Source: a virus
Lineage: Duplodnaviria; Heunggongvirae; Uroviricota; Caudoviricetes
Virus record (IMG/VR): IMGVR_UViG_2833096052_000002
Span: 11,673 to 38,749 of that record
Length of the DNA: 27,077 nucleotides
Reading direction: 5' to 3' (one strand)
Part shown: piece by piece, positions 8,675 to 26,992 of the stretch
Layout of the letters: every line of letters starts with the position of its first letter
How positions within the stretch are numbered: position 1 is the first letter of the stretch
Notes under the pieces: generated by a model
What the model was told of the DNA's origin: nothing
Seen by the model: the letters and a program-made list of their open reading frames with translations, nothing else
The model's database searches: none
Position numbers and translations under genes: made by a program

Positions 8675-9723
8675 TCTCTTAACTTTCTCCTTTCTGACTC
8701 ATCATATAAAACACGATGCTTGAGAAGGAAGTTGTATACTTTATTTGGCATATCAGCAGGGCTGTCTTTACTACCTTTCTTAATCAAATCCCAACGATCA
8801 TATATGTAACTTACTTTTCTAATAGGATAAAATTTATCACATTCCTGTCTAATATGGTTTATATCAATTCCTTCATCTAAAGCCACTACAATTTCTACAT
8901 TTAAACTGATCAGTATCCTAACTTGTTCTTCTGTAAGCTCACAATTTCCTATTGCAACAGCCGTACCATCTTTTCGTGAATACCTTTTAAGCACCGATTT
9001 CTGCGCTTCCAAAACGACTGCATAACCAGCCTCTTGAATTGTTTGATAATTCTCATTTAACCCATATACATTTATTCCTTTTGGATATGTTTTGGATAAC
9101 TTAAAAAACTTCGGAATATCAAACATCTCATAATTTGGTACAGTAGTTCTCCCACTGATACCTATATATTCATTGTCATCTCCATCCCACTTTCGTTCAG
9201 GAATGACAATTCGTTTTCTATCATATGAATATCCAATATTAAATCTTTTACATGCAAAAGGCATAACGCCTTCACGAATCCAATCAATATATGGCAAATC
9301 AATATATTCTTTCATACATGAATCATCATACACTGGAACATCTTTATCAATTGTGTATCTTTGGCGTTTCACCTTTTTGAAGATTGCTAATGGATCTTTC
9401 TTATTATCTTTGTTGTCACTCTTGCTATATGAATATTTCAAACCTAAAATATTGTGGAGATATTTATTAGCTTTTCCAAAAGATATACCTTTTATTGTCA
9501 TAACCAATGTAAAAATATCTCCACGCTTATTTTCTTCCGAACTTCTAATCGCCACTGATAATGTATCTTTCTTTACACATATCGCAGTTTTATTATTGCC
9601 TTGTGGCAAGGCGGCTCTCCATTCAGTAGAATAACTTTTTATTCCGTGACACTCTAAGGCAAGAAGAATTTGTTCCACACAATTATTCTCTATAATGTAT
9701 TCTTTAAGTTCACCAGCATTAAT
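8647..9723 (-). CDS. dnaG: Phage DNA primase (TOPRIM)
   Basis: RIVIPER, GISGRT, YGL, VVLEAQKS, VVALDEG and KDSPAD; lies between DnaB and the polymerase. Start is probably ATT at 9723; the ORF track starts at 9786. Confidence 0.8.
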   Translation of the reverse strand: MNAGELKEYIIENNCVEQILLALECHGIKSYSTEWRAALPQGNNKTAICVKKDTLSVAIRSSEENKRGDIFTLVMTIKGISFGKANKYLHNILGLKYSYSKSDNKDNKKDPLAIFKKVKRQRYTIDKDVPVYDDSCMKEYIDLPYIDWIREGVMPFACKRFNIGYSYDRKRIVIPERKWDGDDNEYIGISGRTTVPNYEMFDIPKFFKLSKTYPKGINVYGLNENYQTIQEAGYAVVLEAQKSVLKRYSRKDGTAVAIGNCELTEEQVRILISLNVEIVVALDEGIDINHIRQECDKFYPIRKVSYIYDRWDLIKKGSKDSPADMPNKVYNFLLKHRVLYDESERRKLRDWQERQVKN

Positions 9724-10458
9724 TATGACCACCGCCTTTATCAAGGAATTTTTCATATAAATGTTTTTGAGGTGCAAATTCACCATAATATTTTTGTTCA
9801 GCTAATAATCTTGCTTTTATTGCTTCTGTCATGTCACTAAAGAATCCTAAATGAATTGCTTTGCCATTCATATGTACTCTTGCTTGCCATTTGTTTTGTG
9901 TTTTATTCCAATTAACACCTATAATTCCAGATGTATTATTTTTCTTAAGACCATTATTTCGATTATTTTCTGAATAAGAACAGATTCGTAAATTTGACTT
10001 TCTGCAATCATTTTTATTTCTATTGATATGATCTACAATATTTGTTGAAGGAAGAATAAGTGAATGAAGATTTATTCGTTTTTTATCAGGCTTTTGTGCT
10101 TGCACATATCCATTTCCTGAGATATGCCAACAATAATCTTTAATTTTGTCATAATCCTCTAAATCAAAATAAAACTCTTCACCTTTAGATGTGTATCCAA
10201 TACCATATTCACCTGATAAATCATAAGTATTATATTTTTTGTTTCTATCTTTGCTACTTTGAATTTTTAAACAACCACACGATTTTGTAGTACCATTAGT
10301 CAAGCTTCCTGATACAATTGATTTATAATTACCGCAATCACACAAACATTTCCAATAAACATTTCTTCCTTTGTGTTTCTTCGTTTCATTTTTATCAACT
10401 TCTAAAATACAATCAATTTCCCGAATCTTTGACCTGATAAATCTCGTATTGCACCCAT
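9719..10458 (-). pseudogene. Free-standing HNH-AP2 homing endonuclease, frameshifted after codon 18
   Basis: SD GGAGG plus ATG at 10458 gives MGAIRDLSGQRFGKLIVF-stop (TAG at 10402-10404). Another frame continues with WKCLCDCG, TKSCGC, VDHINRNKNDCRKSNLR (HNH) and NTSGIIGV..WQARV..HLGFF (AP2). Confidence 0.85.
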
Positions 10459-10478
10459 CCTTATCCTCCATCACAAAT

Positions 10479-11987
10479 TTAAAAATCAACTGGGACAGAA
10501 GTAAAACCAACTTCTTTCAGTATATTTCTACTCATATCATGCTCACATACAATCTGTATACTACTTGCAGCACCCTCACGGTTTTTACAAATGAATATAA
10601 GCTGATAATGTTTGCCTTCGTCCAGTTTGACAGGTATTTTTGATTTATTGTTTTTTCCATCAAATCTATATACCTTTAAAGCATTTTTCTCACCTGTATA
10701 CTCATCTTCAAATACATCTCTCAACATTAAACATGTACTCGCAGGATCGACAATACTTTTTGCCATACCAATATTATCTTGACTATAAAATCTCTGACGT
10801 GCTGAAGACTTTGCCAACTGGAATGTAATAGTTACATGAACTTCCAATCCACCTTCTTCTTTACACTTAATTGTGTCATAAATATCAACCATATTCTGTT
10901 GCATATCTAACCACATCTTATCGGAACGACTGCCTGAATCGGCTTTATATGTATCAAGAATGAAATACTTAACACCGAGGTTTGCATATTTCTTTAGAAC
11001 TTTTATGAATTTCTGAGTCTTATATCTTTTAAATGGAATAAGAGTAAGCATGTTATTCTCAGATTTTTCAACAATCCAATCCGCACATTTCTTTAACAAA
11101 TCTTTTGTCTCATCTGAATATTTACCATCTCTTACAACAAACTTCTGTAAGTCTTGTTTGTAGATATTATTTGCAACCCATACAAGTAATTCTCTCTGCC
11201 ACTTACGAATTCCTTCTTCGTTTACAGCTATGACAAGCCTTTCCCCATATTTAATCGTGCTTGGGATTAACATTGATCTTGTTAATGTGGTTTTACCCAT
11301 ATTAGATAATCCACCAATCAGTGTTATATTGCCAGGTAACTGACCACCAGTTTCCTTGTTGAGAATATCCATATTATTATAAGGAAGACCAACTGCAATA
11401 CCTGCATCTAACTCATCAATTAAATCATAAATGCCATCAGCCAATGAATATGACTGTACATCATCATCTGCATTGATGAAAATATGATTTAACATTGCTT
11501 CATATTCTTCATATATTTCATCTAAAGACATATCACAGAATTCATTGATACGATTATTTACAGGAAATCCATTTTTTAACATCTCCAAAACTGTTTTCCA
11601 CTTGTATAACTCTTTGACATATCCATCCATATTGTTGATGTTTACATACTCTTTGGCTTTATCAATAGTTTCATATCCACCATAATCCTCATATTCCTTT
11701 TTGAGTTTTTGATGTTTTTCAAGATATAAACCAACAGTCATATCATCCAATACTGATTTCTTTTCTACTACAATAATGTCATTTGCAATCTGCCAATAGA
11801 CTCGCCATGTATTTTCACTAAAATCTTCAAGCTGCAATGTATAATCAAAAATTAATTCTGGTTGTTTATATAAAATAGCAACTATATTAGCTTCTGCTAT
11901 TATCTTGTATTCTCGAATCTGTTTTGCACATTTTAATACTTCTTCCTGATAAGGAGTTAATTTTTTATTCTCTTTTTTCTCAGCCAA
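10479..11987 (-). CDS. dnaB: Replicative DnaB-like helicase
   Basis: Walker A GGLSNMGKTT, Walker B FILDTYK, TFQL, and ICKNREG (arginine finger region). Confidence 0.9.
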   Translation of the reverse strand: MAEKKENKKLTPYQEEVLKCAKQIREYKIIAEANIVAILYKQPELIFDYTLQLEDFSENTWRVYWQIANDIIVVEKKSVLDDMTVGLYLEKHQKLKKEYEDYGGYETIDKAKEYVNINNMDGYVKELYKWKTVLEMLKNGFPVNNRINEFCDMSLDEIYEEYEAMLNHIFINADDDVQSYSLADGIYDLIDELDAGIAVGLPYNNMDILNKETGGQLPGNITLIGGLSNMGKTTLTRSMLIPSTIKYGERLVIAVNEEGIRKWQRELLVWVANNIYKQDLQKFVVRDGKYSDETKDLLKKCADWIVEKSENNMLTLIPFKRYKTQKFIKVLKKYANLGVKYFILDTYKADSGSRSDKMWLDMQQNMVDIYDTIKCKEEGGLEVHVTITFQLAKSSARQRFYSQDNIGMAKSIVDPASTCLMLRDVFEDEYTGEKNALKVYRFDGKNNKSKIPVKLDEGKHYQLIFICKNREGAASSIQIVCEHDMSRNILKEVGFTSVPVDF

Positions 11988-18465: not shown

Positions 18466-18741
18466 TTATTCTCTGTTCTTAGAATCCCATTTAACAAAAT
18501 CTTCTAAATCATATTCGCCAGATTCTTCTTCCTTAATCTCAGGAACAAATACGTTATAATTACCTTCGTTACGATCATGTTCAATAATTTGTTTCAACAT
18601 TTCGTACATATTTGTAATTCCTAACTGATATGCTCTCTTCTCGCCTTCAGTCATTCCGTCACAAATTCCATCATTTTTGCTTTCTAATAGATCCTTATAT
18701 TTTTCTAAGCTTTCTACGATTAATAAAAATTCTTCATTCAT
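18466..18741 (-). CDS. Hypothetical acidic protein
   Basis: ORF with SD AAGGAG. Confidence 0.75.
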   Translation of the reverse strand: MNEEFLLIVESLEKYKDLLESKNDGICDGMTEGEKRAYQLGITNMYEMLKQIIEHDRNEGNYNVFVPEIKEEESGEYDLEDFVKWDSKNRE

Positions 18742-18764
18742 TTATATATTCTCCTTTCATTCCA

Positions 18765-18784
18765 CAAGAAACGAATCTTTCTTG
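18765..18784. repeat. Extended palindrome CAAGAAA CGAATC TTTCTTG
   Basis: Perfect 7-bp arms directly after the stop of the PurA-like gene. Confidence 0.7.
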
Positions 18785-18787
18785 TCC

Positions 18788-19879
18788 TCAGTTCACATCA
18801 TTATGTGTTTCGCCATCTGAATAATAAATATTCCAATCCTTGAATAGCTCAATTAACTTATCATTATCCCAATCATATTCATTACAATGTGTAATGGCGA
18901 TTGATTTTTTATCTCCAAAGTTTCCTACATCATTAGAGCATCTACTATATAATTCTCCTAAATCCAGTGTTCCATATCTTAATGTATCCTGGAATGGATT
19001 TGGTACATTTGTTTTGTCAAACATATATTCGTTGATAAATCTCTTATTGCATTCAGATGGAAATTTTCCAGCACCATGTCTTGTCAAATAAGTACGAGAT
19101 ACATAACAAGTTTCAATATTTATCTCATCATTCCATTCAACATTTTCAATTATTCTCTTGGGATTTTTAATACCTGTATTAGACGGTGTTAGATGTGGGA
19201 AATATTCTGTGTTGTTCTGATCAAGCAAAAGTCCTTGTGCTGCTTCAAATACAATATTGTCAAACTGATTTAAGAAATAATTATCTGATATAGCCAATGA
19301 GTGATTATTCATAAAATCCCAATCATCTAAAAAGTGTTCAAATATACCATTATCAAGGAATATTCTTGACCATTCATCTGTTAATATAATATTCTCTCTT
19401 TCAAATTGTTCTAAATAATATTCCCTGATATGATTATCTACATCAGTTATACCAGCTTTATATCTTTTGATAGTTTCAAAAATTCCCAAGCCACAACTAC
19501 CATGTTTATTTTTCCCACGATTTTCCTCTATAATCTGATTTGCCATCATATCAAAAGGCGTTGTCAACATACAGTTTTGATTGATATAAACATTCGGGAC
19601 ATATCCTAATTTCATCAATTCATCATATTCTTGCTTAAAAATAATTGGATTAACAATAAAATCCTCAGATAAATATGTACTTGCATGATTGAATGTTCCA
19701 GATCCAAAATGATGAAAGACATGTCTGATTCCATTAGATGTTATTACAGTATGTCCTCTTTGGGCACCACCATTTGAACACACAACAATACTATTCGGTT
19801 TTTGCGAGAAATAATCTGTCATTAGACCTTTTCCTTCGTCTCCCCAATTCGCTCCACATACAATCTTCATGTCTTTCAT
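18788..19879 (-). CDS. purA: Divergent adenylosuccinate synthetase (PurA) homologue
   Basis: GANWGDEGKG P-loop, GG..GHT, FEAAQGLLLD, TPSNT and TYLTRHGAGKFPSE. The aspartate-binding loop and TKLD motif are substituted, so canonical activity is doubtful. Confidence 0.85.
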   Translation of the reverse strand: MKDMKIVCGANWGDEGKGLMTDYFSQKPNSIVVCSNGGAQRGHTVITSNGIRHVFHHFGSGTFNHASTYLSEDFIVNPIIFKQEYDELMKLGYVPNVYINQNCMLTTPFDMMANQIIEENRGKNKHGSCGLGIFETIKRYKAGITDVDNHIREYYLEQFERENIILTDEWSRIFLDNGIFEHFLDDWDFMNNHSLAISDNYFLNQFDNIVFEAAQGLLLDQNNTEYFPHLTPSNTGIKNPKRIIENVEWNDEINIETCYVSRTYLTRHGAGKFPSECNKRFINEYMFDKTNVPNPFQDTLRYGTLDLGELYSRCSNDVGNFGDKKSIAITHCNEYDWDNDKLIELFKDWNIYYSDGETHNDVN

Positions 19880-19895
19880 AGTTAAATCTCCTATC

Positions 19896-20774
19896 CTACC
19901 AAGTAATTCCTTCTGAGTTAGAAGGTGTAGTAACTGTATCTGCTACATTATTCTCTGCTTCATTAACAATAATATCTACAATCTCATTTGTAATACTGTC
20001 CATATTTACTCTTCTAAAATGAGTATCATCAAGATACTTCTTATAAGACTTTTCAATCTCATCCTCATCCCATCTGTAATAATGATTTACATCTAAATGA
20101 TAAATGTTAAACTTCTGAGAAGCCTCTTTGTATAAATCCTTAGTTTCTACATCTGACTGAAGGCTATCACCTGTTGCTTCAATCAAACCACTTCTTCTAC
20201 CTCTTAATGGAAGGTATGGATTAAGCTGTTCGTCACCCATTGTAATAATAATTCCTTTTCTTCCACGATTTAAACAATCAAGCTTTGTGTGGCGAGAACC
20301 GAAATACCATGCTGCTGTGTAGGATTCATAACTGTTTCCACCACCGCCAAACTCGAAATAAATCTTATCAAGCTGTTCAGCAATACGAATATCCGACTCA
20401 AACTGTGAAGCCTGAATTGGACAGCTATCACAAGCTAAATCACCAATACCCATGATAAGGAACTCAACATCTGTAACTTTTTCATATAACTTAGTCATAA
20501 TTACATTTAACTTCTTTGCCACTTCAACGGCAGCCTGTCCCATGCTCCCAGTAACGTCTAAAGCAAGAATAACAGGGATTGTGTTTGGATGTTCCTCTGT
20601 ATCGCAACACTCTCTAATAACATTCTTAGGATCAAGTGCAGAATCAATATTTCTTGCCTTAAACATATCCTGATTAGAATAAGAACCTCTAATCATACCA
20701 TCCGTTGAAACACTCATACCCTTTGTTGTTGAATAACTTACATAACTATCTCTTGTCCATGAACCGCATCCCAT
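19896..20774 (-). CDS. vWA-domain protein (MIDAS variant DVTGS)
   Basis: ILALDVTGSMG, GIGD, GGGGNSYESY and IITMGDE, in a Rossmann-like strand/helix pattern. Confidence 0.8.
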   Translation of the reverse strand: MGCGSWTRDSYVSYSTTKGMSVSTDGMIRGSYSNQDMFKARNIDSALDPKNVIRECCDTEEHPNTIPVILALDVTGSMGQAAVEVAKKLNVIMTKLYEKVTDVEFLIMGIGDLACDSCPIQASQFESDIRIAEQLDKIYFEFGGGGNSYESYTAAWYFGSRHTKLDCLNRGRKGIIITMGDEQLNPYLPLRGRRSGLIEATGDSLQSDVETKDLYKEASQKFNIYHLDVNHYYRWDEDEIEKSYKKYLDDTHFRRVNMDSITNEIVDIIVNEAENNVADTVTTPSNSEGITW

Positions 20775-20775
20775 A

Positions 20776-21387
20776 TTATGCTTCCTCCTCTTCTATATCT
20801 GTGTCATCATCATTGTCACTCATATCAAAATCAAACATTCCATCGAACATGTCACCCATATTTCCACCCATCATCATAAGTGGTAACATAGAACTCATTC
20901 CACCGTTTCCGTTCATTATGCCAGTAGCACCGTTGTCACCTTTCATCATCTGAGAAAGCATCATATACTTGAAGATATTGTTTGTACCTTTCTTACCTTT
21001 GATAATATCACTACCAAACATTGAAACAATTTTGCCATAAAAATATGTATTACCCATAAATACATGTCTTTCAGGAAGTACAGTCTCGATTGTTGAATCC
21101 TCATAATTGATTACTGTGATCTTTGTCTTATCCGCTTCAATAACGCATCTTGGCTTGCCATTTACAAGAATAATGTCACCCTTCTCTACCTTATTAGTTG
21201 GAATAATAAAGAAGAATTCCTCACCAATATCAAATACAAAGTTACTACAGTTTGTGAGCTTGCCAGTCTTGATGTTATATGTCTTATAACCACCATTTGT
21301 CTTAACTGCAATTCCACCATTCATAGAAAGTCTACACATTCCACTTCCTACTTTGCCAAACATACCATTTAAAAAATTGTTCATCAT
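20776..21387 (-). CDS. Hypothetical protein with a Met/Gly-rich low-complexity region and acidic tail
   Basis: SD AGGAGG. The C-terminus reads MMLSQMM...GGMSSMLPLMMMGGNMGDMFDGMFDFDM then DNDDDTDIEEEEA. Confidence 0.8.
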   Translation of the reverse strand: MMNNFLNGMFGKVGSGMCRLSMNGGIAVKTNGGYKTYNIKTGKLTNCSNFVFDIGEEFFFIIPTNKVEKGDIILVNGKPRCVIEADKTKITVINYEDSTIETVLPERHVFMGNTYFYGKIVSMFGSDIIKGKKGTNNIFKYMMLSQMMKGDNGATGIMNGNGGMSSMLPLMMMGGNMGDMFDGMFDFDMSDNDDDTDIEEEEA

Positions 21388-21430
21388 ATTTATTTCCTCC
21401 TATAATATAAAAATTATTGTTTACAATTAC

Positions 21431-21721
21431 TTATTCTCTCAACTGCGACATTCTCATCAATTCTTCTTTGTCTGCTTTTGATAATGTCAATCCTGCTTTA
21501 ATCCAAGCATCTGTCTGTTCATCAATTTTCTTCTTATATTCACCTTGAATTGTCCCATTTCCACTCAACAAGCTCTTACAATTATCATACTGAATAGCAT
21601 TTGTCTCATAAGCATTTCTGAGATTGCTTTCTAAGCAGCGAATAATTCTTATTAGCTCATCTTTTGTCATATGTTTTAGAGAACTATCTGCCAAAGTATG
21701 TTTCCCATCGCCTATCGCCAT
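21431..21721 (-). CDS. Hypothetical protein
   Basis: ORF with SD AGGAG. Confidence 0.7.
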   Translation of the reverse strand: MAIGDGKHTLADSSLKHMTKDELIRIIRCLESNLRNAYETNAIQYDNCKSLLSGNGTIQGEYKKKIDEQTDAWIKAGLTLSKADKEELMRMSQLRE

Positions 21722-21733
21722 ACATTTATTCTC

Positions 21734-22057
21734 CTACTCTTTTGCAATTCCAATGCCATTTACTTTAAAGCTAGTAACCTTACCCTCTTCAATTTCAACA
21801 TTTTCTTCTGTGCCACCATACCAAACAAGACCAACGCCTGTAATATACATATCATTTTCATCTTCAATCAATTCAACTTCTTGCGTTGCTCCAATAGGAA
21901 GAAACCGACCATCACTACATGGTATCTCAATCGGAACATCCTTTACATTTTTATAAGCGTTTCTAATTGCTTCTTTTGAATATATCACACCGTTCAAATC
22001 AGGCTTATCAACTGGAATTGGAATTTTAAATGTTACTTCTATATTCTCTGTTCTCAT
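21734..22057 (-). CDS. Hypothetical protein
   Basis: ORF with SD AGGAG. Confidence 0.7.
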   Translation of the reverse strand: MRTENIEVTFKIPIPVDKPDLNGVIYSKEAIRNAYKNVKDVPIEIPCSDGRFLPIGATQEVELIEDENDMYITGVGLVWYGGTEENVEIEEGKVTSFKVNGIGIAKE

Positions 22058-25970: not shown

Positions 25971-25984
25971 GAAAGATTGGTTTA
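25971..25984. repeat. KAAA-N6-TTTM palindrome (GAAA GATTGG TTTA)
   Basis: Overlaps the TAA stop at 25982-25984. Confidence 0.65.
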
Positions 25985-26926
25985 CTTCGATTCTCCTGAA
26001 TCATTAAATTCTCTACCTTCAATGATATTCTGGATACCTGTTTTACATTTTTCTAAAGCAAAAGCATATGCGTTATTATAGATAAGTTTGTCGTATTCTG
26101 CTGTTAGATTGGCGTATGCACTATCAATAGCTTCATCAATACCATCTATAAACCTGCAAAGTCTGTCAATTACTTCATTATTGACAAACTCTTCATCATA
26201 TAGTTTTGCAGTTGCCCTCAAACCTCTTGATTTATTTGCATGTTCGAAAGCCTTTAACTCATCTTTACCAAGCCATTTGATCCATGCACCGCAATCATCA
26301 CAATAAAGTCCTGTGTTGTTACCTTTTACTTCATTGCAAAGCTTACACATTGTTTGATAGTTACTAATATCATCAATACCACCTTTTGAGCGTGGTATAA
26401 TATGATCTTTTGTCATTAAAATTTCATTGCCATTATCATCAACTGCATATAAATTCAGATGATAACTCTTATCCTGTAAATGTCTTTCTTTTGCAAAATA
26501 TTTTCCTTCAATTCCACAAACTACACATTTACAACCTTTAGTAAAAAATGTTTGGTATCTTTGGCTATTGCCCTTAATCAAATCTCCGTCAAAATCAACT
26601 TTTGCAAGTTTTTTATCTTTCTCAAATAAAACATCTTTAACCTTATCTCTGGCTTCTTCTATTGAATAGATTTCTTTCCTAAGTAATTTTGTAGGATTAA
26701 AATCTTTTAAAAGCGTTTTTACTTCACCTAATTTAAAACATTTTTCAAATAGCGGTTGCTTGTGCCAAGTTACGGATAATAATTCCGTATCTTTTGTAGG
26801 TGACATTGGATTATTGTTCTTAGGGAAATCGGTTTCTAAAAAATCTCGTATTGTCTCGAACCTCAAAGACAATACCTTATCATCGACTTTGTATTGGATT
26901 TTAAATTTTTTATCTTTTCTTCGCAT
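25982..26926 (-). CDS. HNH (McrA-like) endonuclease-domain protein with an extra C-terminal region
   Basis: CVVCG...TKDHIIPRSKGG.DDISNYQTMCKLCNEVKGN. Likely start is ATG at 26926 behind SD AAGGAG. Confidence 0.8.
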   Translation of the reverse strand: MRRKDKKFKIQYKVDDKVLSLRFETIRDFLETDFPKNNNPMSPTKDTELLSVTWHKQPLFEKCFKLGEVKTLLKDFNPTKLLRKEIYSIEEARDKVKDVLFEKDKKLAKVDFDGDLIKGNSQRYQTFFTKGCKCVVCGIEGKYFAKERHLQDKSYHLNLYAVDDNGNEILMTKDHIIPRSKGGIDDISNYQTMCKLCNEVKGNNTGLYCDDCGAWIKWLGKDELKAFEHANKSRGLRATAKLYDEEFVNNEVIDRLCRFIDGIDEAIDSAYANLTAEYDKLIYNNAYAFALEKCKTGIQNIIEGREFNDSGESK

Positions 26927-26992
26927 AAAACATATCTCCTTATAATTTATTGTCACCTATATATTCTCTCTTTGTCATTCAAAAACTCAAAG

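Follow-up and report, generated by a model that had tools for sequence, protein, structure and literature searches.

What does a phage do with a homologue of adenylosuccinate synthetase (PurA) in which the aspartate contacts are gone, and why is this homologue encoded directly behind a von Willebrand factor A (vWA) protein? The question is raised by a stretch of 27,077 nucleotides (hereafter the window, meaning the whole stretch), which spans bases 11673-38749 of the 178,076-bp provirus record IMGVR_UViG_2833096052_000002, rated complete by CheckV. On its minus strand, three successive genes encode a Met/Gly-rich protein of 203 aa (20776..21387), a vWA protein of 292 aa with a predicted metal ion-dependent adhesion site (MIDAS; 19896..20774) and a PurA-like protein of 363 aa, a short form of the enzyme (18788..19879). 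Adenylosuccinate synthetase has so far had one famous phage variant, the PurZ of Z-DNA phages, and the vWA-linked branch to which the window enzyme belongs is unstudied. Here we describe this branch, which is neither PurA nor PurZ, and we propose a function for the module as an amidoligase system driven by a nucleoside triphosphate (NTP).

A third branch of PurA homologues

The PurA-like protein matches PF00709 with an E value of 4.3e-37, the alignment covering only positions 1-282 of the 416 in the profile, and it matches phrog_1211, which carries a PurZ label, at 1.5e-66. Its top matches in the PDB are bacterial PurA proteins (E 5e-19), and no PurZ entry was found there at E 0.001. With the NCBIfam models it stays far under the cut-offs of both families: the PurA equivalog models (NF002223, TIGR00184 and others), whose cut-offs run from 368 to 700 bits, give it no more than 105 (104.9 against 402 and 90.3 against 395.6, for example), and the PurZ model NF038379, with its cut-off of 300 bits, gives it 46.8.

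A tree of 43 rows inferred by maximum likelihood, with a quick search and several long branches, separates a vWA-linked branch of 21 rows, which holds the window protein (SH-aLRT 99), from the five PurZ/PurZ0 rows (99) and from canonical PurA (89). The P-loop distinguishes the window protein as well. It reads GDEGKG, whereas the PurZ/PurZ0 proteins of phiVC8, Acinetobacter, Burkholderia, Wayne and Archimedes carry GS(T/E), and a 2026 survey found the aspartate at position 13 replaced by serine in 100% of 147 phage PurZ/PurZ0 proteins (PMC12884076). On the grounds of the tree branches, the NCBIfam scores below cut-off and the retained Asp13, the enzyme is a member of a third branch, neither PurA nor PurZ.

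This branch lies in territory that has been counted and left aside. The same survey collected 481 phage PurA homologues, assigned 147 of them to PurZ/PurZ0 and did not discuss the remaining ~330; Mycobacterium is unmentioned in it (PMC12884076). Our own phage search gave 201 mycobacteriophage homologues. The window enzyme thus falls in the undiscussed non-PurZ group, many members of which are labelled PurZ or PurA. As for the companion enzymes of Z-DNA synthesis, DatZ (PF12917) gave no match in the complete 178-kb record, although the control genomes gave matches; PF04447 (MazZ/DUF550) also gave no match in the record, but that search was equally blank in every control genome.

Substitutions in the active site

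To compare the active sites we aligned 21 members of the branch with 17 canonical PurA proteins from bacterial and archaeal genomes, with E. coli PurA and with phiVC8 PurZ; positions below are in E. coli numbering unless the window protein is named. The phosphotransfer residues are kept throughout: G12, D13, G15, K16, G17, H41, E221 and G225 in 21/21 members, and Q224 in 20 of the 21. The window equivalents of the catalytic D13, K16, H41 and Q224 are D14, K17, H43 and Q215.

The aspartate pocket has been rewritten. T300, retained in 15/17 canonical proteins, is W, F or H in the branch (F in the window); T301 is Q in every member, R303 is deleted, and R305 is F, L or M (L in the window), these three positions being invariant in 17/17 canonical PurA. 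The site that holds the phosphate of inosine monophosphate (IMP) has changed in part. T239 is kept in all 21 members, N38 has become Q in 20/21 and T129 has become C in 19/21, both substitutions being present in the window protein, and R143 is lost (G in the window, in a stretch where the alignment is less certain). Near the substrates, R131 is hydrophobic in the family and V273, close to the ribose, is H in 21/21. Among the residues of guanine specificity, K331 is H in 16/21, including the window protein (THCN), and D333 is divided between D (13 members) and N (8 members, the window among them). The substituted sites are invariant or nearly so among the 17 canonical PurA proteins.

The branch has also acquired residues of its own that are invariant or nearly so, namely, in the numbering of the window protein, Q40, H126, C129, H268, N291, Q297 and R301. 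The window protein displays the corresponding signatures GGxQxxH, HGSCGxG, TRHG and the QGxxR loop, with Q40, H126-G-S-C129, H268, Q297 and R301. The motifs quoted in the preliminary description of this locus (GDEGKG, GGAQRGHT, GSCGLG, FEAAQG, TPSNT, THCN and a replaced aspartate loop) are all present, and every substitution that it had read by eye holds in the 21-member alignment against canonical PurA and PurZ. It is confirmed that these substitutions are family-wide traits and not chance, since they run through the whole alignment. The tree and the table of active-site columns that the description had called for therefore agree with its claim that the enzyme is not a PurA for AMP supply, and add that it is not a PurZ: the aspartate contacts are gone, the NCBIfam scores lie under the cut-offs and the branch stands apart.

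The asparagine at the D333 position (window codons 18881-18892, T-H-C-N, residues 330-333) occurs in the window clade, in the clostridial locus L006 and in Vibrio phages, and also in phiVC8 PurZ. At least two independent switches of phosphate donor within the vWA-linked family are suggested by the sequences. In E. coli PurA, the D333N mutation switches the donor from GTP to xanthosine triphosphate; given this precedent and the Asn at the same position, the donor of the window enzyme is probably not GTP.

Linkage to the vWA gene

Is the vWA gene a chance neighbour? In a scan of species-representative genomes, in which family membership was decided by PurA-homologue score, a vWA gene lay directly upstream on the same strand at 14/14 bacterial loci of the family and at 0/66 canonical purA loci. 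The two genes are neighbours as well in Vibrio phage VB_VaC_TDDLMA, in Rhizobium phage RHph_Y65 and in the cluster C Mycobacterium phage Cane17, at 39-42% vWA identity. The co-occurrence seen in the window thus extends, for the vWA gene, through bacteria and other phages, and the module is widespread.

The Met/Gly-rich gene behaves differently. Among close IMG/VR relatives, 77 of 80 loci hold all three genes (one of the remainder is a truncated contig), and three phage lineages preserve the order of the genes. On the enzyme tree, all loci that carry the Met/Gly-rich gene group together in a single sub-branch (the window clade, L006, L008, Vibrio and Rhizobium), whereas in the other sub-branch and in L007 its position is taken by a kinase-like gene, often with a weak J-domain match; this gene precedes the vWA gene in Cane17, in L015 and in actinobacterial loci. 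The universal core is therefore the vWA/PurA-like pair, and the three-gene unit is real for one lineage. The preliminary description had treated the three genes as one module, which holds as far as gene order within that sub-branch goes and fails elsewhere, where the kinase-like gene replaces the Met/Gly-rich gene or the Met/Gly-rich family is found without the module. Its statement that no characterised system has such a composition stands: full-text literature searches found no paper on a system combining vWA and PurA-like proteins.

The vWA partner

The 292-aa protein has no Pfam vWA match at E 0.1 or better, and its PHROG family (phrog_2971, E 4e-67) is of unknown function. The vWA assignment made from the sequence is nevertheless sound, as an AlphaFold2 (AF2) model built with 18 homologues is confident (pLDDT 88.3, pTM 0.89) and is matched by Foldseek to integrin I-domains, SpaC and the TFIIH p44 vWA domain at probability 1.0. 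Its MIDAS-type residues are D73, T75 and S77, in a DxTxS variant of the motif (D73-V-T75-G-S77), and G180-D181. Their columns vary little or not at all in the family, which fits a predicted MIDAS site. The invariant columns of the family include M1, G2, R54, D73, S77, D116, P119, Q121, Q124-F-E126, E141, the GGG(G) loop, E150-S-Y152 and D181, and E55 and G146 are nearly invariant. The window protein begins with MGCGSW, has the loop as GGGG and ends in a disordered tail closing with ITW.

All 21 partners inspected (the 18 aligned and those of the Vibrio, Rhizobium and Cane17 phages) start with Met-Gly, and their sixth residue is aromatic (Trp, Tyr or Phe). Such a start spans Firmicutes, Bacteroidota, Proteobacteria, Actinobacteria and Planctomycetota, in loci from Clostridia, Bacteroidales, Competibacter, Saprospiraceae, Streptomyces, Amycolatopsis, Nocardiopsis, a myxobacterial and a planctomycete source, and in the Vibrio, Rhizobium and Mycobacterium phages.

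The annotated start of the Cane17 protein (gp251, 605 aa; L003:2909-2947) is a GTG overlapping the stop of the kinase gene; 12 codons downstream lies an ATG with a strong AAGGAGA site, from which the N-terminus would read MGSGAW. The deposited start is probably too long. A search for longer, fused vWA forms yielded two singleton metagenomic chimeras only: P0391 (619 aa), in which the N-terminal 194 residues of a near-identical vWA protein are followed by unrelated sequence, and P0392 (514 aa), in which unrelated sequence is followed by its C-terminal 160 residues. Both are probably recombinants or assembly chimeras.

The Met/Gly-rich protein

The first protein of the module belongs to no Pfam family and to no PHROG. 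Residues 1-125 form a beta-rich N-domain with an SH3/KOW-like barrel, followed by a helix, a disordered Met/Gly-rich segment, the motif FDGMFD and a poly-acidic tail; in the AF2 model the N-domain has a pLDDT of 80-95 and the C-terminal half lies under 60. The matches of residues 60-122 to small KOW, Tudor and EF-P domain I barrels are weak (Z at most 4.7, where about 8 serves as a guide to noise). The family comprises 743 clusters at 50% identity, and its C-terminal motifs are K-x-MM-x-S-x-M, M-x-P-x-MM-x-GG, FDG(L/M)FD and the acidic tail.

The proteins upstream of vWA in the Vibrio and Rhizobium phages are homologous to it and have the same build (hhalign 96.1%, E 3.5e-9), a relationship that BLASTP failed to detect. 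Bacillus phages G, Edson and WH1 have the Met/Gly-rich domain as the C-terminal portion of larger proteins, such as gp208 of vB_BceM_WH1 (L170:3260-4735) and gp39 of phage G (L169:3605-4645), both from jumbo Bacillus phages. For the label 'virion structural protein' on WH1 gp208 we found no basis, neither a supporting paper nor a PHROG. Single-protein scans of IMG/VR for further divergent contexts of the family gave almost nothing. In Rhizobium phage RHph_Y65 a small HIRAN-domain gene lies between the Met/Gly-rich and vWA genes (L002:3655-3972).

Gene neighbourhood and NAD metabolism

Several loci place the module close to genes of NAD metabolism. In the Rhizobium phage, phosphoribosyltransferase-like and nicotinamide mononucleotide adenylyltransferase (NMNAT)/Nudix genes lie within 4 kb of it, in L010 and L011 the first gene of the cassette encodes an NrtR regulator with a NUDIX domain and an NrtR winged helix, and the window phage has a nicotinate phosphoribosyltransferase (NAPRTase)-like gene ~19 kb away on the same strand.

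Two further loci deserve description. On the chromosome of an uncultured Clostridiales known from a metagenome-assembled genome (L006:486-7182, contig CADCHI010000016.1), the module comes directly after an isochorismatase-type gene (nicotinamidase/PncA-like), an NAD-synthase/NMNAT-like gene and an NAPRTase gene, and an Rnf operon lies downstream of it, so that the whole looks like a complete nicotinate salvage operon with the module added. In Vibrio phage VB_VaC_TDDLMA, a NADAR-domain gene (E 7e-49; L001:2483-3133) lies directly upstream of the Met/Gly-rich gene.

We considered whether the PurA-like enzyme might substitute for NAD synthetase. This was rejected because NadE is present in 5/5 module-bearing genomes tested, in L006 within the same operon.

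Proposed function and alternatives

What reaction could such an enzyme carry out? We propose, and hold the chances to be about even, that the module is an amidoligase system that runs on an NTP and derives from the adenylosuccinate-synthetase fold; it would use an amine other than aspartate and would be distinct from PurA and from PurZ/PurZ0. The PurA-like enzyme would transfer a phosphate to the lactam oxygen of a nucleotide of purine type, from GTP in the Asp333 members and probably from ATP or another NTP in the window phage, where the residue is Asn as in the ATP-using PurZ. The phosphate would then be displaced by a non-aspartate amine in a pocket that is hydrophobic and uncharged (W/F/H, Q, F/L). 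The vWA protein would be the obligate partner that supplies or presents this amine, its invariant N-terminal glycine being the leading candidate. In the window lineage the Met/Gly-rich protein may serve as an accessory third subunit, a client or a recruiter, and its acidic tail could, as a conjecture, bind the MIDAS metal. The setting would be NAD+/ADP-ribose metabolism in the conflict between phage and host, and not bulk purine synthesis. The preliminary description had put forward as candidates a purine-amine ligase or the joining of a purine nucleotide to a protein that the vWA subunit recruits, with a possible part in counter-defence.

The vWA N-terminus takes first place among the candidate amines because the sole constant enzyme of the system is an apparent amidoligase without an amine pocket of its own. 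Bacteria expose an N-terminal glycine by removing the initiator methionine, and the invariance of the vWA glycine favours chemistry at the N-terminal amine. In its most specific form, which we think rather unlikely, the proposal would have the enzyme ligate a purine nucleotide through C6 to the alpha-amine of this glycine, giving a linkage of the N6-(carboxymethyl)adenylate type. In view of the recurrent NAD-salvage neighbours, the tethered nucleotide could then be, or turn into, a protein-bound analogue of NAD or ADP-ribose, acting as bait, sensor or private cofactor in an NAD+ conflict. The client or recruiter at the MIDAS site would be the Met/Gly-rich protein, and in other lineages the kinase-like protein with the J-domain.

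Several observations weigh against the amidoligase proposal, or against parts of it. At one IMG/VR locus (L087:5604-7089) a clean deletion has removed the Met/Gly-rich and vWA genes and left a 97%-identical PurA-like gene in place; at another (L115:5054-7089) unrelated sequence stands in the place of the Met/Gly-rich gene and of residues 1-58 of the vWA protein, MG N-terminus included, the rest being 95% identical. In view of this deletion and this replacement, the phage can do without the partner genes, and perhaps the enzyme can as well. Three divergent metagenomic members of the Met/Gly-rich family have neither a vWA nor a PurA-like neighbour, and the genomes of Bacillus phages G and WH1 carry the family and lack the vWA protein. 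The association with NAD is one of gene neighbourhood only, and L008 has no NAD-type neighbour. The substrate, the amine and the product are putative for all members of the family; with the 5'-phosphate site rewritten and R143 lost, the first substrate may be something other than a purine mononucleotide.

The module is thus strongly conserved but dispensable, as is often the case for accessory or conflict genes. In L087, a homologue of the window gene 21431-21721 abuts the PurA-like gene.

The strongest alternative is a small-molecule amidoligase of NAD/ADP-ribose metabolism, which we regard as possible but doubtful. Here a free hypoxanthine or guanine nucleotide or dinucleotide would be aminated, or converted in another way, with ammonia or a small amine, the vWA protein being a regulator or scaffold; a deaminated NAD analogue, IDP-ribose, ITP and dITP are candidate substrates. 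The recurrence of NAD-salvage, NADAR and NrtR genes beside the module speaks for it, as does L087, where the enzyme persists without its partners. A 5'-phosphate site that lacks R143 and is reshaped by changes at N38, T129 and K18 fits a substrate with a larger 5' group, and His268 and Gln297, which are new and invariant in the family, could deal with a small amine. What it leaves unexplained are the invariant N-terminal glycine and aromatic position 6 of the vWA protein and the constant presence of the vWA gene upstream, and in its simplest form, the replacement of NAD synthetase, it is excluded by NadE in the five genomes tested.

An improbable alternative is that the module is non-catalytic or decaying, either a nucleotide-binding scaffold or switch with a vWA adaptor, in the manner of the MoxR-vWA pairs, or selfish cargo. 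vWA proteins are usually adaptors for NTPases, as in the MoxR/CbbQ/NorQ-vWA pairs, and L087 and L115 show that deletion and replacement are recent. However, 20 or 21 of the 21 members keep each catalytic residue (Asp, Lys, His and Gln) and the family-specific residues are invariant or nearly so, and such conservation at identities down to 26% indicates selection on an active site.

It is very improbable that the gene is an auxiliary metabolic gene for a divergent, functional adenylosuccinate synthetase that raises AMP supply during infection: the PF00709 match and the bacterial PurA proteins at the top of the PDB search would suit it, but all four aspartate contacts are lost, the equivalog scores are far below their cut-offs, the branch is separate and no purB lies near the gene, whose context is one of replication genes. 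Hardly tenable at all is a PurZ/PurZ0-type enzyme making 2-aminoadenine (Z) DNA, as the PHROG/RefSeq label '2-aminooxy adenylosuccinate synthetase' has it, and we reject it in spite of the phrog_1211 match, the PurZ labels on phage homologues, the short form and the Asn at D333, since Asp13 is kept where 147 phage PurZ/PurZ0 proteins have Ser (PMC12884076), the NF038379 score is a fraction of its cut-off, the protein falls outside the PurZ/PurZ0 clade without the aspartate-binding arginines, and DatZ was not found in the complete record.

Working out this module would put right a large annotation error and add a new reaction to the PurA fold. It could also bring to light a new participant in the phage-host conflict over NAD+ and nucleotides, and possibly a new protein modification: ligation at the N-terminal glycine, if true, would be a new kind of protein-nucleotide linkage.

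Layout and setting of the module

The three genes are tightly coupled, as the preliminary description had reported. The Met/Gly-rich gene ends in GAA GAG GAG GAA GCA TAA (TAA at 20778-20776), a single T follows, and the vWA ATG begins at 20774; the Shine-Dalgarno-like sequence of the vWA gene, GAGGAGGAAG (20781..20790, minus strand), lies within the EEEA codons of the upstream acidic tail. The vWA stop, TAG at 19898-19896, is followed by the 16-nt spacer GATAGGAGATTTAACT, which contains an AGGAG ribosome-binding site (19888..19892, minus strand), and the PurA-like ATG lies at 19879. Upstream of the Met/Gly-rich gene there is a weak sigma-70-like promoter match (TTGAGA, 18 nt, AATAAT; 10/12; 21413..21442, minus strand); the count of such matches in the region is not above the shuffled expectation.

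Just past the PurA-like stop there is a perfect 8-bp inverted repeat, ACAAGAAA/TTTCTTGT, with a 6-nt loop (18764..18785, minus strand). It had been taken for a palindrome that closes the module. The repeat exists, but a role as terminator is rejected: it has no T-run, its folding z-score of -0.87 is no better than that of shuffled sequence, and the next gene, with its own AGGAG, starts at 18741, 23 nt past the repeat. It is the one perfect 8-bp hairpin of the window, against 5.7 in mononucleotide shuffles, and between 18300 and 22300 we found zero terminator-like sites. Within the 60 nt that follow the PurA-like stop in the relatives L086-L165, the motif AACAAGAAAGATTCGTTTCTT is kept in sequence, with no compensatory changes, and the downstream gene varies beyond it. 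This conservation of the motif while the genes after it differ suggests that the site is a recombination or mosaic junction, neither a terminator nor an RNA structure.

The window has a G+C content of ~31% and carries nearly all its genes on the minus strand. The module lies in a replication region, with a DNA polymerase, a DnaB-like helicase, a primase-like protein, exonucleases, a Sak4-like annealing protein and two HNH endonucleases. The HNH genes (9719-10510 and 25982-26956), one of which sits between the primase-like and DnaB-like helicase genes, are likely homing elements. The closest cultured or deposited relative is MT835469, a 176-kb human faecal phage with 82% DNA identity across the module. 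None of the three module proteins has a match among the anti-phage defence models of PADLOC-DB v2 (E at most 0.01), and the flanking open reading frames 18466-18741, 21431-21721 and 21734-22057 show no Pfam match to the Ser/Thr kinase and PP2C phosphatase of a TerY-P-type triad or to the AAA+ MoxR ATPase of a MoxR-vWA system.

Comparison with known systems

In its neighbourhood the module resembles the NARP1 and NARP2 pathways of NAD+ reconstitution and the salvage operons under NrtR control, as it recurs, in bacteria as in phages, beside genes for NAPRTase, NMNAT, nicotinamidase, NAD synthetase, NADAR and NrtR. Unlike these systems, none of its three proteins belongs to a known NAD-pathway family, and in the window the NAD genes are ~19 kb away.

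In its composition it recalls the MoxR-type pairs (CbbQ/CbbO, NorQ/NorD, RavA/ViaA) and the Mg-chelatase subunits ChlI/ChlD, where a P-loop protein that uses an NTP is likewise encoded beside a MIDAS vWA protein. By analogy, the vWA protein could bridge its NTP-using neighbour to a client through a contact between the metal and an acidic residue. The NTPase of the module, however, is an amidoligase of the adenylosuccinate-synthetase fold and not an AAA+ protein, and a scan of seven proteins from the module and its surroundings found no AAA+ domain.

With the PurZ/PurZ0 enzymes (phiVC8, S-2L and Gordonia phage Archimedes) the window enzyme shares its phage origin, the short form, a probably altered substrate specificity and a common database label, and its Asn at the D333 position is that of the ATP-using phiVC8 PurZ. 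It differs from them in keeping Asp13, in having lost the aspartate-binding arginines, in its clade, in the lack of a detected DatZ and in its vWA partner, which PurZ does not have.

From PurA itself (EC 6.3.4.4; E. coli b4177, PDB 1ADE/1CG0; B. anthracis 4M0G) it is set apart by the replacement or deletion of T300, T301, R303 and R305, the changes at N38, T129 and R143, the invariant His in place of V273 and the H/N in place of K331/D333. The C-terminal third is shorter (363 against 432 aa in all), a vWA partner gene is present, the branch is separate and the scores stay below the equivalog cut-offs. What the two have in common is the PF00709 fold, the P-loop Asp and Lys, the catalytic His, the Gln of FE(G/A)AQG and the equivalent of T239; the expected chemistry would also be shared, with transfer of the gamma-phosphate to the lactam oxygen and then attack by an amine.

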